Of a stretch of 64,000 nucleotides of DNA, positions 44,924 to 51,536 are shown piece after piece. The notes under the pieces were generated by a model. It was not told the DNA's origin. It did no database searches and saw nothing but the letters and a program-made list of their open reading frames with translations. How positions within the stretch are numbered: position 1 is the first letter of the stretch; every line of letters starts with the position of its first letter. Origin of the DNA: Enterobacteria phage vB_EcoM_IME341; the sequence record MH051917; one strand, written 5' to 3'. Made by a program: the position numbers and the translations under genes.

Positions 44924-45202
44924 ATGTTTGTAGTTCATACAATTTCAGACTATGGTCCTACCACTACAATGGATTATGGTCATGTAAACCAGTTTATTCG
45001 TCATGTGAATCATGATTACTCATTTGATGTAAATCCGGCTAAAGACCATCCTGTTTGGCGCGAATGCGTCGAACAGGGATTCATTTATGTCCATTTTATG
45101 TCCAAGTTCAAATCTGATGGGCGAATGAGATTTGTGTTCTCTTATCATAAGCGATTAGACTTGCTTTTGGCTGATGTGGCTTATAATAGAATCCATGACT
45201 AA
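44924..45202 (+). CDS. hypothetical protein
   Basis: ATG 44924 right after HAD stop; 92 aa. Confidence 0.4.
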   Translation: MFVVHTISDYGPTTTMDYGHVNQFIRHVNHDYSFDVNPAKDHPVWRECVEQGFIYVHFMSKFKSDGRMRFVFSYHKRLDLLLADVAYNRIHD

Positions 45203-45212
45203 TGAGGTGATT

Positions 45213-46718
45213 ATGATTTTAGATATCTTAAACGAAATTGCTGCTATTGATTCTACTAAAGCTAAAGAAGCCATTATTGCTCGTGAAAAGGACAATGAGC
45301 TTCTGAAACGTGTTTATCGTATGGCTTATACCCGTCGTTTGAACTATGGTATTAAAAAGTGGCCAGAACCTGGATTTACGTCTCAATCCTTTGGTATGAT
45401 TACTCTTGAAGACCTTCTTGATTTCGCAGAGTTCACATTAGCCACTCGTAAGATTACGGGTAATGCGGCTATTGAAGAACTGGCTCAAATCATTGCTGAT
45501 GCTAAGGCCCCGGATGCCGAGGTATTACGTCGTGTAATGATGCGTGACCTTGAATGCGGTGCATCGATTTCTATTGCTAACAAGGTTTGGAAAGGTTTAA
45601 TCCCTGAACAACCTCAAATGTTAGCTAGTTCTTATGATGAAGATTTGATTAAGAAAAATATTAAATGGCCAGCATTTGCTCAATTAAAAGCTGACGGTGC
45701 TCGTTGTTTTGCCGAAGTTCGTAACGATGGTGTGACATTCCTTACTCGTGGTGGTAATGAATATCAAGGGCTTAATCTTTTGGCTGCTGAATTAATGGCC
45801 ATGACCGAAGAAGCTCGACAACGCCATCCTAATGGTGTTATGATTGACGGCGAATTAGTTTACCACACTCCTAAAGTAGAACCTAAAGCATCTAATGATT
45901 TGTTTAGTATGTTTGATGAGGAACTTCCTGAATTAAGTAAGGCTAAGGAATTCCAAACTGTCGCCGATCGTTCCACGTCAAACGGCTTGGCTAACAAGGC
46001 TCTTCAAGGGACTATTACTCCAGCCGAAGCCGATGGTATGGTATTACAGGCATGGGACTTTGTTCCACTGGATGAAGTTTATTCTGAAGGCAAAATTAAA
46101 GGCCAAAAATACGATGTTCGTTTAGCGGCATTAGTACAAATGGCTGAAGGCTTTACACGTGTCGAGCCTATCGAAACGCAATGGGTTAATAATCTTGAAG
46201 AAGCTAAAGTCGTTTATAAAAAATATGTCGACCAAGGTCTGGAAGGCATTATCCTTAAGAACATGGACTCCTACTGGGAAAACCGCCGTTCTAAGAATCT
46301 TATCAAGTTCAAAGAAGTAATCGATATCGCTTTAGAAGTGGTAGGTTATTATGAACACTCGAAGGACCCTAACAAACTAGGCGGTGTCGAGTTGGTATCA
46401 CGTTGTCGTCGAATTACAAGTGACTGTGGTTCAGGCTTTAAAGATACTACCCATAAGAAAGATAAATCAGGTAAAAAGGTATTGATTCCATTGGAAGACC
46501 GCCCTGATTTAGACCGTGAACTTCTTATGAAGCAAGCTCGTGAAGGTAAGTTGATTGGACGTATTGCTGACTGTGAATGTAATGGTTGGGTTCATTCTAA
46601 AGGACGTACAGATACTGTAGGTATTTTCCTTCCAATCATTAAAGGTTGGCGTTTCGATAAAACAGAAGCTGATACATTTGAAGATGTATTCGGTGATTGG
46701 TCTCAAACTGGACTATAA
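45213..46718 (+). CDS. 30: ATP-dependent DNA ligase
   Basis: MILDILNEIA start; KADGAR adenylation motif; long collinear identity with recalled T4 ligase; track start 45174 is upstream of the SD. Confidence 0.95.
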   Translation: MILDILNEIAAIDSTKAKEAIIAREKDNELLKRVYRMAYTRRLNYGIKKWPEPGFTSQSFGMITLEDLLDFAEFTLATRKITGNAAIEELAQIIADAKAPDAEVLRRVMMRDLECGASISIANKVWKGLIPEQPQMLASSYDEDLIKKNIKWPAFAQLKADGARCFAEVRNDGVTFLTRGGNEYQGLNLLAAELMAMTEEARQRHPNGVMIDGELVYHTPKVEPKASNDLFSMFDEELPELSKAKEFQTVADRSTSNGLANKALQGTITPAEADGMVLQAWDFVPLDEVYSEGKIKGQKYDVRLAALVQMAEGFTRVEPIETQWVNNLEEAKVVYKKYVDQGLEGIILKNMDSYWENRRSKNLIKFKEVIDIALEVVGYYEHSKDPNKLGGVELVSRCRRITSDCGSGFKDTTHKKDKSGKKVLIPLEDRPDLDRELLMKQAREGKLIGRIADCECNGWVHSKGRTDTVGIFLPIIKGWRFDKTEADTFEDVFGDWSQTGL

Positions 46719-46719
46719 T

Positions 46720-46893
46720 ATGAAAGCTTATTTAGAAACAATTGTAATATCACATACTACGGCTGCCCCAGCCGTTTCTCAAACCATTTTAGAATTCATA
46801 GATGAAGCCGCATATAATAAATTTATTGAGGTCTTTGATGGCTATGAAAAAGGCCCGACATTCGAAGTATACCGTACGTTGCTACCACTTTAA
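46720..46893 (+). CDS. small hypothetical protein (57 aa)
   Basis: ATG overlaps ligase stop; followed by terminator. Confidence 0.35.
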   Translation: MKAYLETIVISHTTAAPAVSQTILEFIDEAAYNKFIEVFDGYEKGPTFEVYRTLLPL

Positions 46894-46909
46894 GGCCTTC
46901 GGGCCTTTT
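46893..46909 (+). terminator. rho-independent terminator
   Basis: aggcc-ttcg-ggcct hairpin followed by TTT. Confidence 0.6.
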
Positions 46910-46913
46910 CTGG

Positions 46914-46921
46914 CATAAATA
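46914..46921 (+). promoter_or_regulatory. near-consensus late promoter CATAAATA upstream of alt
   Basis: cataaata about 22 nt upstream of alt ATG; one mismatch to TATAAATA. Confidence 0.35.
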
Positions 46922-46943: not shown

Positions 46944-49028
46944 ATGACCGAACAATTAAATGAAGTGTTTGAGTCCGAAGGCACACTGCCTACAGTAAAC
47001 TTGAACCCTAAACTTAAAGTACCACAGATTTGGAAGATTGGAGACGTAGAGTCTCAATTAGTGGCGCGTATTGTGTCCTACGCTTCTGAAGGCGATGCCA
47101 TTAAACAAGTTAAATTGGGTGACAAATATGCCCACGTTATCCTTATGAGCCTTTCGGCTAAAGGTTCTCCTGCTGAACTTAAAGGCGGCTTAGGCCCTAC
47201 TCCTATTGATGCCATTAATACCATTTTCGACGTAGTATTCGAACAAGTTAAAAAGCTTCGTATGGATGCCGTGATGTTCCGTTTCCCTACCAAGAAAATG
47301 AAAGGACAAGGCCCTATTGTCCAGAGAATTATCCAACGTTTAGTAACTCAAAAAACCGGCGGGCGTTTCAAAGTAGTTCCAGCTATGTACCAATTTACGG
47401 GCAAGCATACTTATATCTTAGTAGTTCGTAAACAAGCTGATATCGAAGATATCAAAGGTATGCCAGGAATTAATGCCGAATTATATACTAAGGTAGATTC
47501 TGATGTCGGTGAAGTTTATATTTCTAAAAAAGAAGGCGTGCAGGTTACTAAAGAAACTGCTATTGCCGGCAGTATTGCTAAAGTTGAAGAACGTCGCACT
47601 GATAAAATGGTTATAACTAAGACTAAGATTTCTCGTCGTGCCATTGCAGCAAGTCAATCGTTAGAATCTTATCGTAATGAAAGTGAACTGTTTAAGAAAT
47701 ATGAAGCAAATGCTGTAGATTTTAATAAACCGGCGACAGCTCCATTAATCCCTGAGGCCCAGGAAATGGTCACTAATAACAATTCTCCTGCGGCTAAAAA
47801 TAAGGTTGCTAATATAGTAGCTGAAGGTACTGCCGAAGAGTTGCATTATGATTATAAAATGTTTCCTCTTCACGGTATAGGTGAAATCCAAGAGAAAATT
47901 AAAGAGAAAATCCTGTCAGCCATCAAAAACGAACCTTTGACATCTGTTAAAGCTCTAGAAAAATACGCCTCTGTTATTAATACCGTTTTCGAAGAATACA
48001 AAGGCGAATGGTTGGCCCAGCATAACAAAACTCGTAAAGGCCAACCTGACGACCTCTGGAATGAATTGACCGAGTCCAAGTGGAAAGCAGCCAAGACCAA
48101 ATTCATTAAAAAACGCGTATATAGTTTTGCTGGTGTAGGTGGCGGTATTATGGTCGATATTACTATTGCTCGTGAGGGCTCTAAATATACCCCATCACAA
48201 AAGCGCGGCATCAGAGAATATTGCGGTTCAGGATATACAGATATCAATAATCTTCTTTTAGGACGCTATAATCCTCATAACTATGATGTAATGAACGAAA
48301 AATCTATTGAATCTGCAGTTAATAATTTGGATTCTGCTTTTGAAAATGGTGACCGTATACCGGAAGGCATTACAGTTTATCGTGCACAGAGTATGACTGC
48401 TCCTATATACGAAGCACTAGTTAAAAATAAAGTGTTCTATTTTAGAAATTTTGTATCTACTTCTTTAACTCCTATCATTTTTGGACGATTTGGTGTTACA
48501 CACGCCGGTATCGGTCTTTTAGAACCGGAAGTTCGCGATGAATTGACGGTCGATAAAAATGAAGAAGGAATAACTATTAACCCTAATGAAATAAGAGCGT
48601 ATAAAGAAAATCCTGATTACGTTAAAGTTCAAATAGGATGGGCGATTGACGGTGCTCATAAAGTTAATGTGGTATATCCAGGAAGTCTCGGAATAGCAAC
48701 TGAAGCTGAAGTCATTTTACCTCGTGGGTTAATGGTCAAAGTTAATAAAATAACAGATGCTTCTAATAATGACGGAACAACATCTAATAATACAAAACTC
48801 ATCCAAGCCGAAGTTATGACGACAGATGAGCTTCAAGAATCTGTGGTGTATGATGGTGACGTACTAATGGAAACCGGCGAGTTGGTCGTATATCAAGATG
48901 ATTTCGATACTTCCGAAAGCCCTGTATCTTTTGATTCATTTGTTAAATCTACACGGTTTGATGTACTGCCTCTTTTGGCTTCATGCATAGACCTCTATGA
49001 CATCCCAGAAAAATTCATCCAAGGGTAA
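46944..49028 (+). CDS. alt: Alt ADP-ribosyltransferase (head-packaged, modifies host RNA polymerase), copy 1
   Basis: 694 aa; N-terminal and mid regions (ISRRAIA.SQSLES) match recalled T4 Alt; R-S-E motifs YRAQ, FVSTSLT, EAEVILPRG. Confidence 0.85.
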   Translation: MTEQLNEVFESEGTLPTVNLNPKLKVPQIWKIGDVESQLVARIVSYASEGDAIKQVKLGDKYAHVILMSLSAKGSPAELKGGLGPTPIDAINTIFDVVFEQVKKLRMDAVMFRFPTKKMKGQGPIVQRIIQRLVTQKTGGRFKVVPAMYQFTGKHTYILVVRKQADIEDIKGMPGINAELYTKVDSDVGEVYISKKEGVQVTKETAIAGSIAKVEERRTDKMVITKTKISRRAIAASQSLESYRNESELFKKYEANAVDFNKPATAPLIPEAQEMVTNNNSPAAKNKVANIVAEGTAEELHYDYKMFPLHGIGEIQEKIKEKILSAIKNEPLTSVKALEKYASVINTVFEEYKGEWLAQHNKTRKGQPDDLWNELTESKWKAAKTKFIKKRVYSFAGVGGGIMVDITIAREGSKYTPSQKRGIREYCGSGYTDINNLLLGRYNPHNYDVMNEKSIESAVNNLDSAFENGDRIPEGITVYRAQSMTAPIYEALVKNKVFYFRNFVSTSLTPIIFGRFGVTHAGIGLLEPEVRDELTVDKNEEGITINPNEIRAYKENPDYVKVQIGWAIDGAHKVNVVYPGSLGIATEAEVILPRGLMVKVNKITDASNNDGTTSNNTKLIQAEVMTTDELQESVVYDGDVLMETGELVVYQDDFDTSESPVSFDSFVKSTRFDVLPLLASCIDLYDIPEKFIQG

Positions 49029-49031
49029 ATA

Positions 49032-51155
49032 ATGGAAAATTTAAACGAGGTTTTTGATAGTGATTCCGCTAAAAACTATCCAGTAACAAATCTTAAACCG
49101 GGTTCCGGTATCCCACAGATTTTCTCTATCCATGCACCAGGTAATGATAACCTGGTGGCTCGTATGGTATCTTATGCGTCTCAAGGAGACGCTATTAAAA
49201 TGGTTAAGCCAGGCGACAAATACATTCATGTTATTCTAATGAGTTTGTCAAGCAAGGGTGCTCCGGCTGAACTTAAGGGTGGCCTTGGTTCTGACCCACT
49301 TGGTACACTGAATACCATTTTCGATACTGTATACGAACAAGTAAACAAACTTAAAATGGATGCAGTTTTATTCCGTTTCCCTACCAAGAAAATGAAAGGT
49401 AAGGGTCCTACTGTTCAGCGCGTATTGGCACGTTTGGCGATGGCTCGTACCGGTGGTAAGTTTAAAGTTGTTGACAACATGTTCCAATTCAGTGGAAAAC
49501 ATACCTACGTTCTTTTAGTACGTCGTGGTTCTAATATCGAAGATATCAAAGGCATGCCTGAAATTGATGCTGACCTTTATACCAAAGTCGATTCTAAAGT
49601 CGGCGAAGTGTATGTTTCTAAGAAAACCGGCCAGGCCGTAAGTAAGGTCGAAGCCGTAGCGGCATCTATTGCACAGGTTGAAGAGAAACGTACCGATAAG
49701 GCTGTCATTACTCGTACTAAGATTTCACGACGTATGGCCGCAGCCGCGCAGTATTCTACTGCTGAGCCTGAAACTTTGCCCCCTAAAGAATTGCAGGTTT
49801 ATAACGAATTTGAAGCTTCTGTACCGGTTCACACTGCCGAAGGCCCTGAGAACGAAGGTATTGAACAGATTAGTCAGAACTTTAAAAAAGGTGCTATTAC
49901 CAAAATGCGCCAGGCTTCTCAGTTTAAATCTAAGAGCGAGGACCTTGCCAACTTTAGATACACCATTGCTCTCACACATGCTTTAATGACTGATAGTAAA
50001 TTTAAACTAAATTATGCTAATAGAGATAAACAAGGGTTTGAAATTTACTCTAAAAATATGGCATTTTTTAATACAGAAGTCGATAGACTTTTAAGCGGCC
50101 TTTCGCAAATCAATACAACTAATAGTCTGGATATTATTAAGAGAATTGTTAATAACCTGAGTGCCCGTTTTAATGGTTCCCCTTCAGAGAAAGCATCTCG
50201 AATTGCTTTCGCTATGGAAGCCGTTTATAAACTGATTAACGATTCTATTGGTGATGCATATGCTTATTCAGGCGAACTCATTAAACCTAAGGACCTAACC
50301 AAAGACGAAAGCAATGCTATTATTGAATATTGCGCAGCTGAATATGCTCCTATGAACTTATTCCTTTTAGGTAAACCTGAATCCGAAAACAATACAACGG
50401 CTATTAGATTGATTAAGGATTTAGACTCGGCATTTACTAAGGGTATTAAACTTCCTAAGGGTACTATTTTGTATCGTGGTCAGGATTTGCCATACAAAAT
50501 TCTGCGTCATAATATCGATAACAAAACATTTTACTTTAAGAACTTTGTGTCCGCCTCACTAAAGCCTAACATCTTTGGTGAATTCGGTAAAAATTATATG
50601 GCCCTCGACAACCAAGCCGTTTTTGTTGGTGGTGAAGGTTCTTTATCCTCCGCTGATGAGTTGTTTAAATTGGCTAGTGGTAGTTCATCTGATGTGGGTG
50701 AAGTCGATGACGAAGAGGTAGAATGGGAAGAAGACGAGTTTGGTAATCCAATTGCCCCTGAAGGTCCTGCGGATAGAATTGCTGAAATAGGCATGGTTAT
50801 TCGAGGTGCTGAAGCAGTTAAAGTTATCGCTCCTGGTGACCTTACAGAATACGCTGAAGAAGCAGAAATCATCCTTCCGCGAGGATTATTGATGAAGGTT
50901 GATAAAGTAGCGGCTTTTGCTATGAATGATAGGGTATCTCACAAATATCTTATGGAAGCTACTGTGATGTCTCCTTCAGAGCTCAGTGAATCTGTTTACG
51001 ATGGTGACCATCTAATGGAAACCGGTGAAGTTCGTCCGATGGATGGCTTTAAACAGTTCTTGGTTAGTGAATCTGTTTCTGAAAGCAACGAGGCTATGGA
51101 AATCTTAGCAGCATCTTTGGATATCTCTTCTCTACCAAATAAATTCAAAATGTAG
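49032..51155 (+). CDS. Alt-like ADP-ribosyltransferase paralog, copy 2
   Basis: 707 aa; N-terminal ~230 aa similar to copy 1; YRGQ, FVSASLK (SAS instead of STS), EAEIILPRG; acidic insert before the ExE. Confidence 0.8.
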   Translation: MENLNEVFDSDSAKNYPVTNLKPGSGIPQIFSIHAPGNDNLVARMVSYASQGDAIKMVKPGDKYIHVILMSLSSKGAPAELKGGLGSDPLGTLNTIFDTVYEQVNKLKMDAVLFRFPTKKMKGKGPTVQRVLARLAMARTGGKFKVVDNMFQFSGKHTYVLLVRRGSNIEDIKGMPEIDADLYTKVDSKVGEVYVSKKTGQAVSKVEAVAASIAQVEEKRTDKAVITRTKISRRMAAAAQYSTAEPETLPPKELQVYNEFEASVPVHTAEGPENEGIEQISQNFKKGAITKMRQASQFKSKSEDLANFRYTIALTHALMTDSKFKLNYANRDKQGFEIYSKNMAFFNTEVDRLLSGLSQINTTNSLDIIKRIVNNLSARFNGSPSEKASRIAFAMEAVYKLINDSIGDAYAYSGELIKPKDLTKDESNAIIEYCAAEYAPMNLFLLGKPESENNTTAIRLIKDLDSAFTKGIKLPKGTILYRGQDLPYKILRHNIDNKTFYFKNFVSASLKPNIFGEFGKNYMALDNQAVFVGGEGSLSSADELFKLASGSSSDVGEVDDEEVEWEEDEFGNPIAPEGPADRIAEIGMVIRGAEAVKVIAPGDLTEYAEEAEIILPRGLLMKVDKVAAFAMNDRVSHKYLMEATVMSPSELSESVYDGDHLMETGEVRPMDGFKQFLVSESVSESNEAMEILAASLDISSLPNKFKM

Positions 51156-51184
51156 TTTACAACACCACAAGGATGTGGTACTAT
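51155..51184 (+). promoter_or_regulatory. T4-type early promoter
   Basis: GTTTAC 51155-51160 (starts on last base of alt-2 stop), TACTAT 51179-51184. Confidence 0.5.
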
Positions 51185-51212: not shown

Positions 51213-51503
51213 ATGAAATCTGCATTCCGTTTTAATGGTCAAGAACTGGTAGTTGAAAACGTTATTCCTGCTTCCGAAGAGTTTGACAGTGCCATTGGTA
51301 ATGAATTGCGTCGAGTTTTCGGTGAAGATAAGCAATTTGATATCCGTCCTGTTGAGAACTTTTCTCAGCCGGAACAAACTGAAAATATCTTTAATGGTGT
51401 AGTGACTGGTCAGCTTGAATCCGAAGCTCCTATTTCAGTTACGGTATTTGTTAAAAAGCAACCATTAACGACGGCGGCAGGTTTCATTTCGTTCCGTAAG
51501 TAA
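51213..51503 (+). CDS. hypothetical protein
   Basis: 96-aa ORF, SD catgaggaga. Confidence 0.45.
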   Translation: MKSAFRFNGQELVVENVIPASEEFDSAIGNELRRVFGEDKQFDIRPVENFSQPEQTENIFNGVVTGQLESEAPISVTVFVKKQPLTTAAGFISFRK

Positions 51504-51512
51504 ACCCCTAAA

Positions 51513-51536
51513 GGAGAGCGTATGCTCTCCTTTTTT
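51513..51536. terminator. rho-independent terminator between convergent genes
   Basis: ggagagc-gtat-gctctcc hairpin followed by T6 on plus; sits between the 51213 ORF and gp54 (minus). Confidence 0.7.

Follow-up and report, generated by a model that had tools for sequence, protein, structure and literature searches.

Two adjacent genes of vB_EcoM_IME341, a T4-type coliphage of the genus Dhakavirus, encode full-length ADP-ribosyltransferases (ARTs) of the Alt family; they lie in the 64,000-nucleotide stretch of record MH051917 analysed here (the window) and are referred to as altA and altB. A defining trait of the T4 Alt family is NAD+-dependent ADP-ribosylation of host proteins, among them the alpha subunit of RNA polymerase at Arg265. 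MazF is reportedly also modified by T4 Alt. We consider it probable that AltA and AltB are two old, diverged and functional paralogues of T4 Alt, which would be expressed together late in infection, packaged, trimmed and injected, and which would act enzymatically on distinct host targets. The reading builds on what the analysis shows: the structure of the two genes, their homology and synteny, conserved motifs, purifying selection and the fold predicted for the proteins.

46944..49028, + strand: altA, Alt-family ADP-ribosyltransferase of 694 amino acids (aa)
49032..51155, + strand: altB, Alt-family ADP-ribosyltransferase of 707 aa, starting 3 nt past the altA stop (TAA-ATA-ATG)

The list of open reading frames (ORFs) in the window gives exactly two plus-strand frames here, both opening with ATG and separated by 3 nt. 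In a BLASTP comparison, AltA and AltB are 39% identical overall (E 3e-143), with 67% identity over the N-terminal ~232 residues, less than 20% in the middle and 30-55% in the catalytic part. Each aligns end to end with the profile phrog_802, 'Alt-like RNA polymerase ADP-ribosyltransferase' (AltA, E 1.1e-261, residues 1-693 on profile positions 1-674; AltB, E 3.6e-251, residues 1-707 on 2-674). The Pfam family PF03496 (ADPrib_exo_Tox; gathering threshold 23.4 bits) is found in AltA with 123.8 bits and in AltB with 64.8 bits in two stretches, split by an insert; an NCBIfam search gave no match for either protein. An earlier note, made from the sequence alone, had described two full-length Alt paralogues of these lengths that share their N-terminal ~230 residues and diverge through the middle region, and all of this holds.

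The novelty implied there was overstated, because both genes already carry the correct annotation in public genomes. AltA and AltB are identical at every residue to YP_010094750.1 and YP_010094751.1 of vB_EcoM_IME341, both named 'Alt-like RNA polymerase ADP-ribosyltransferase' in RefSeq, and the annotation of phages IME08 and JS10 already calls the pair alta/altb. At the nucleotide level the 4.2-kb locus is 97.4% identical to Escherichia phage IME08 and 92.5% to JS10. Thirty phage records align with it along 80% or more of its length, and those listed are without exception Dhakavirus-like. The tandem pair is real, but it is already in public annotation and ordinary for T-even relatives.

Catalytic domains and the acidic loop of AltB

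The catalytic residues and the regions in which the two proteins differ are located as follows.

48381..48383, + strand: AltA catalytic Arg480 (alignment, translation)
48456..48464, + strand: AltA S505-T-S507, in FVSTSLT (alignment, translation)
48702..48710, + strand: AltA E587-A-E589, the ExE motif (alignment, translation)
49734..50291, + strand: AltB all-helical middle region, aa 235-420 (less than 20% identical to the AltA middle; AlphaFold2 (AF2) model)
50475..50477, + strand: AltB catalytic Arg482 (R in 61/62 homologues; translation)
50550..50558, + strand: AltB S507-A-S509, in FVSASLK (middle residue T in 57/62 homologues)
50583..50795, + strand: AltB hypervariable-loop position, aa 518-588 (71 residues), between the 'PNIFG' segment, which resembles the phosphate-nicotinamide (PN) loop, and the strand before the ADP-ribosylating turn-turn (ARTT)/ExE loop
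50682-50738, + strand: acidic core SSSDVGEVDDEEVEWEEDE of the AltB loop (translation)
50859..50867, + strand: AltB E610-A-E612, the ExE motif (both Glu in 62/62 homologues)

Translation of these coordinates bore out the motif readings of the earlier note: the R-S-E motifs are intact in both copies, the second copy has FVSASLK where the first has FVSTSLT, and an acidic run precedes the ExE of the second copy. In the alignment of 62 family members, 61 have the Arg and 57 the second Ser, while the first Ser and both Glu residues of the ExE occur in all 62. AltB has every catalytic residue, and its sole deviation is the middle position of S-T-S. Alignment with the T4 enzymes Alt and ModA, in which the R-S-ExE residues correspond throughout, places the same S-A-S in ModA (S96-A97-S98) and aligns ModA E165 with AltB E612. 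ModA is an active ART, and the E165A exchange abolishes its activity, as does the corresponding mutation in Alt (PMC11404850). The Alt catalytic glutamate is numbered E577 in that paper and E576 in our translation, an offset of one residue. The T-to-A change in S-x-S is not a sign of inactivity, since active ModA carries S-A-S.

Structure prediction with AF2 gave models of the two Alts with predicted template modelling (pTM) scores of 0.70 and 0.72. The AltB model has a mean predicted local distance difference test (pLDDT) score of 75.0, rising to 80-96 in the ART core outside the loop, and its Foldseek matches are Vis, C3, Certhrax and VIP2. In the Protein Data Bank there is no solved Alt structure, and sequence matches there are only weak ones to CDTa and iota toxins. 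Purifying selection acts on both genes: the ratio of non-synonymous to synonymous substitution rates (dN/dS), taken pairwise across eight Dhakaviruses, lies between 0.027 and 0.085, and that of the first half of the AltB ART domain is 0.019, lower than that of the N-terminal domain. The earlier note had named loss of an intact NAD-binding fold in the second copy as the outcome that would undo its reading. Such a loss is not borne out, because the motifs (R482, S507, S509, E610 and E612) are intact, ModA has S-A-S and dN/dS is low; the predicted fold of AltB is of the C3/VIP2/Vis type and includes the NAD-binding part.

AltB further has an acidic loop between the conserved segment after S-x-S and the strand leading to the ExE loop. 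The 'P-x-IFG' segment that follows S-x-S is taken here, by analogy with C3, to be the PN loop. At this position the Alt family has 34-77 residues, AltB having the longest (77 aa by alignment boundaries) and most acidic version, with 18 D/E against 3 K/R in its 71 residues. The loop lowers the predicted isoelectric point (pI) of mature AltB to 6.15, versus 8.8 for AltA. In the AF2 model pLDDT is below 50 over most of residues 518-578, yet the loop is the most constrained segment of AltB in Dhakaviruses: only one of its 71 positions varies among eight genomes, between G and D, with a synonymous divergence (dS) of 0.21 and a dN/dS of 0.012. In a 72%-identical metagenomic relative the poly-acidic run is missing. 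Because it is predicted to be disordered yet strongly constrained, the loop is probably functional. It could act as a nucleic-acid-mimicking bait steering AltB to DNA- or RNA-binding host proteins, or as a lid that silences AltB in the producing cell and the capsid.

Age of the pair and the histories of its two halves

Each Alt begins with an N-terminal domain, followed by the effector part (middle region and ART domain).

46944..47639, + strand: AltA N-terminal Alt domain, aa 1-232, ending in KISRR
49032..49733, + strand: AltB N-terminal Alt domain, aa 1-234

The proteins were split after the conserved KISRR motif and the halves compared separately. The N-domains group by genus: identity is 63-91% among those of Dhakavirus, 67-99% among those of Tequatrovirus and 42-46% across the two genera; that of AltA is 67% identical to that of AltB and only 45-46% to those of T2 and T4. 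The effector parts group by type: AltA and the first T2 copy share 77%, AltB and the second T2 copy 54%, AltA and AltB 34%, and other pairs 31-39%, except for T4 Alt, which is 51-57% identical to AltA and to the first T2 copy. N-domains sorting by genus and effector parts sorting by type indicate that the AltA/AltB pair is older than the split between Dhakavirus and Tequatrovirus. Either the N-domains have been homogenised within each genome, or effector parts have been swapped between genomes. The first T2 copy and T4 Alt are ~100% identical up to residue 220 and 15-70% thereafter; judged by the sequences, Tequatrovirus genomes certainly do exchange such parts. For AltA, we also weighed a recent horizontal acquisition of the effector from T2-type phages and ruled it out, since the ART domains of AltA and T2, 90-100% identical in protein, share only 76.6% of their nucleotides. 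The high protein identity therefore marks strong constraint on an old orthologue, and not recency.

A pair at this place is common among relatives. A tblastn search with the N-terminal domain found 1,745 places in 1,200 phage records, and 27 of the 60 records in an even sample of Alt-bearing phages hold two copies. In T2 and AR1, an AltA-type gene is likewise followed by an AltB-type gene at this position, with the same 3-nt spacing. Some Dhakaviruses carry three copies: in AnYang an additional gene (ORF139, L002 5089-7134) sits between altA and altB, and WG01 has a fourth Alt type of 631 aa upstream of altA (ORF201, L012 4663-6558, - strand), which is without the YDGDxLMETGE segment described below. 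The effector parts of these two additional genes are only 31-39% identical to those of AltA and AltB, and across the Dhakavirus pangenome as a whole there are four or more types of effector, arranged two or three to an array.

Against this background, the single full-length alt that the earlier note gave for T4 is indeed what the T4 locus shows, but relative to T4 the pair is no new duplication: it is shared with T2/AR1-type Tequatroviruses, and T4 keeps a stump. The T4 genes alt.-1 and alt.-2 (L004 6553-6938) correspond, at 96% identity, to residues 1-56 and 62-116 in the second Alt of T2 (L003 4501-6558), and the DNA alignment of T4 with T2 displays a clean deletion of ~1.69 kb in the second alt of T4. 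In this alignment T4 is a derived exception, and alt.-1/alt.-2 are the 5' stump of an AltB-type gene. Nolan et al. 2006 (PMC1524935) had already described alt.-1 and alt.-2 as paralogues of alt and reported a full-length duplicate in phage 44RR.

A search of 1.84 billion representative proteins with the Alt N-domain returned only 70 matches, 69 of them at the very N-terminus, and nearly all are Alt-like proteins of 600-712 aa. Sequence searches for a GNAT-like (GCN5-related N-acetyltransferase) fold in the domain were all negative (hidden Markov model against PDB sequences, Pfam at E<=10, hhalign against RimI). The earlier note placed the T4 capsid-targeting region within the N-terminal ~230 residues. 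The T4 signal is indeed N-terminal, but the documented one is the short propeptide, of which six residues are removed at ITE-6 (PMC5694885); a packaging role of the whole ~230-residue domain is suggested by its genus-specific conservation. Rare other arrangements occur: no ART is detectable in P0174 (541 aa), the one candidate to emerge from a search for non-ART cargo on this domain; P0172 (1142 aa) is prolonged by a sizeable C-terminal extension; and in P0179 (919 aa) the sub-segment 168-232 is repeated five times. These proteins may represent alternative cargoes on the same delivery module. In precomputed annotations, PF26846.1 accompanies PF03496 on every Alt homologue found, and is presumably the Alt N-terminal domain; the local Pfam search of AltA and AltB was without it.

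Processing, packaging and expression

Sites for the prohead protease, gp21, are predicted at both ends of each protein, and a candidate late promoter precedes altA.

46893-46910: GC-rich hairpin preceding CATAAATA
46914..46921, + strand: late-promoter-like CATAAATA, 22 nt upstream of the altA ATG (read from the sequence; promoter function putative)
46944..46964, + strand: predicted AltA N-terminal propeptide MTEQLNE (LNE-7), aligned with T4 ITE-6 (Glu invariant in 62 homologues)
48840..49025, + strand: predicted AltA C-terminal propeptide, 62 aa, pI 4.05, after LQE-632, the homologue of T4 LTE-619 (E632 invariant in 62)
49032..49049, + strand: predicted AltB N-terminal propeptide MENLNE (LNE-6; E6 invariant in 62 homologues)
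50991..51152, + strand: predicted AltB C-terminal propeptide, 54 aa, pI 4.3, after LSE-653 (E653 invariant in 62 homologues)

In T4 the prohead protease removes six N-terminal residues of Alt at ITE-6 and 63 C-terminal residues at LTE-619, leaving a protein of 68.2 kDa (PMC5694885), and the head holds about 40 copies (PMC5694885; PMC9026906; PMC9697503). The mass that we computed for T4 Alt residues 7-619 is likewise 68.2 kDa, and because it equals the published mature mass, the site mapping is validated; the corresponding masses are ~69.5 kDa for AltA and ~71.2 kDa for AltB. Since the two cleavage sites known from T4 Alt are conserved in AltA and AltB alike, both proteins are, by analogy, probably packaged into the head and injected. 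Both C-terminal propeptides start with YDGDxLMETGE, which is kept in every Alt examined except the fourth type of WG01 and holds a second L-x-E (LME). The role of the C-terminal propeptide is not known in T4 either (PMC5694885).

T4 alt is a late gene (PMC9697503). Upstream of altA the exact TATAAATA is absent, and only the 7/8 variant CATAAATA is present; the core ATAAATA is under-represented in the window, with 14 occurrences where 24.7 would be expected. Downstream of CATAAATA, altA has a strong Shine-Dalgarno sequence, AAAGAGGAA, and AAGGG is likely that of altB. Late co-expression and co-packaging of the two genes are likely on this arrangement.

Based on these features, we propose the following course of events, in which (i) altA and altB would probably be transcribed late from one promoter directly upstream of altA; (ii) they would be translated as a tightly packed pair; (iii) both proteins would enter the prohead core by means of their common, genus-specific N-domain and the short N-terminal propeptide; (iv) the prohead protease would trim both ends, at LNE-7 and LQE-632 in AltA and at LNE-6 and LSE-653 in AltB; (v) both would be injected along with the DNA; and (vi) each would use NAD+ to mono-ADP-ribosylate arginines of host proteins, as R-S-ExE chemistry predicts. 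Different host targets are most likely, because the helical middle, the ARTT-loop residues and the large loop at the NAD pocket are almost unrelated in the two sequences. The suggestion of the earlier note that two copies widen the target range is plausible and fits this pattern of divergence.

The surrounding genes follow the T-even order, namely gene 30, alt.1, altA, altB and alt.-3, then 54, 48 and 29 on the opposite strand; other T-even relatives likewise have their alt locus flanked by gene 30/alt.1 and alt.-3/54.

45174..46718: gene 30 (DNA ligase), its end overlapped by the alt.1 homologue
46678..46893, + strand: alt.1 homologue, a small ORF upstream of altA (phrog_1976, E 2e-25; named alt.1 in IME08 and JS10)
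51156..51184, + strand: early-type promoter-like site (G)TTTACA-N17-TACTAT upstream of alt.-3
51213..51503, + strand: alt.-3 homologue, 96 aa (phrog_1739, E 6e-42; annotated in relatives)
51510..51533, + strand: strong hairpin resembling an intrinsic terminator, between alt.-3 and gene 54, which converge

A sigma-70 promoter scan of the locus gave 10 sites, fewer than in shuffled sequences (14.3), and for that reason no promoter is claimed from it apart from the early-type site before alt.-3. C-terminal extension mutants of T4 Alt.-3 escape the CmdTAC defence system (PMC11618068).

Alternative explanations and comparison with known systems

A pseudo-enzyme role for AltB, in which it would serve in the head core or as a structural protein, retaining the Alt scaffold but transferring no ADP-ribose, is very unlikely from its motifs, the ModA precedent, the predicted fold and dN/dS. 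One could read in this direction the alanine in place of a threonine found in 57 of 62 homologues, the long disordered acidic insert beside the NAD pocket, the weaker and split Pfam ART score (64.8 bits) and the description of Alt as a phage core protein (PMC11404850). However, R482, S507, S509, E610 and E612 are all in place, the S-A-S is that of an active enzyme, the ART core is modelled with high pLDDT and matches solved ARTs, and a dN/dS of 0.019 in the first part of this domain, below that of the N-domain, would be unexpected under purely structural selection. It is also improbable that AltB is redundant with AltA, sharing targets such as RNA polymerase alpha and being kept for dosage or robustness. 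The effector parts are 34% identical and the middle regions less than 20%, each type has been kept separately across two genera (77% for AltA and the first T2 copy, 54% for AltB and the second), and the ARTT-loop residues and adjoining loop differ completely, even though both proteins have the same fold and the arginine-specific ExE signature and would arrive at the same moment. The occurrence of four or more types of effector in the Dhakavirus pangenome, two or three to an array, argues for diversification rather than dosage.

A further alternative is that AltB has changed its chemistry or its substrate. T4 ModB, a relative, reportedly performs RNAylation (bioRxiv 10.1101/2021.06.04.446905), and the surroundings of the NAD site are remodelled in AltB, so that attachment of NAD-capped RNA, or modification of a nucleic acid or small molecule, may be imagined. 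We regard this as distinctly unlikely: the ExE of the Arg-specificity signature is kept, no sequence feature specifically suggests nucleic-acid binding, and the strong acidity of the loop (18 D/E versus 3 K/R) argues against binding of RNA or DNA. A more far-reaching scheme makes AltB an injected effector with its own target range, the loop a functional element or auto-inhibitory lid, and the alt locus a cassette array of interchangeable ART warheads on a genus-specific head-packaging domain; as a whole we hold it to be rather doubtful, with some chance of being right.

We therefore return to the reading of two old, functional paralogues with distinct targets, against which several points count. 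The late-promoter assignment relies on agreement with the T4 consensus at 7/8 positions; T4 Alt is the source from which packaging, cleavage and activity have been extrapolated; the threonine replaced in AltB is 92% conserved in the Alt family, and alanine could alter the kinetics; and a 60-residue loop beside the active site, predicted to be disordered, could occlude it. Moreover, the literature search found no experimental work on AltB or on any second Alt copy, no virion proteomics showing two Alts and none for a Dhakavirus, and no function, target or packaging data for any AltB-type enzyme; such enzymes appear uncharacterised.

As first stated, the finding adds nothing new, the genes being in RefSeq under the right name. 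Its significance lies in the atypical position of the model phage: T4 has lost a second Alt that many relatives keep, so that decades of work on Alt have dealt with only one of at least four effector types at this locus. T2 and many therapeutic phages carry an enzyme of the AltB type. The incongruent histories of N-domain and effector suggest a delivery module with exchangeable cargo, which is relevant to engineering T4-type heads for protein delivery.

The altA/altB genes of IME08, JS10 and IME341 occupy the same locus and show no difference of substance. T4 Alt (gpAlt, 682 aa), a head-packaged NAD+:arginine ADP-ribosyltransferase, is built from the same three parts, namely an N-domain with KISRR at its end, a middle region of helices and an ART of C3/VIP2-like type with R-S-ExE, and has the same position between gene 30/alt.1 and alt.-3/54 and L/I-x-E protease motifs at homologous N- and C-terminal positions. 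It differs in being only 47% identical to AltA and 32% to AltB, in lacking the S-A-S and the 71-residue acidic loop of AltB, and in occurring as one intact copy beside a stump. The second Alt of T2/AR1/PP01/Shfl2-type Tequatroviruses (T2 BBC14817.1, AR1_201) is of the orthologue type of AltB, with 48% identity overall and 54% in the effector part, the same C-terminal ...KFKM and an acidic loop. In contrast to AltB, it has the canonical S-T-S, a shorter loop without the DDEEVEWEEDE run and a Tequatrovirus-type N-domain that is 44% identical.

T4 ModA (200 aa), which acts on RNA polymerase alpha, aligns with the Alts at R-S-ExE and shares the S-A-S of AltB, whereas it is only 13-16% identical, has no N-terminal Alt domain, middle region or propeptides, and is expressed early and not packaged (annotation; PMC5512222). 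The C3, VIP2, iota/CDTa and Vis toxins (PF03496) have the same catalytic fold and R-S-ExE/QxE arrangement at 13-22% identity to the Alts. Unlike these toxins, the Alts carry an insertion of 35-77 residues between the PN-loop-like segment and the strand before the ARTT loop, and Alt is delivered by the phage head rather than by a toxin translocon.

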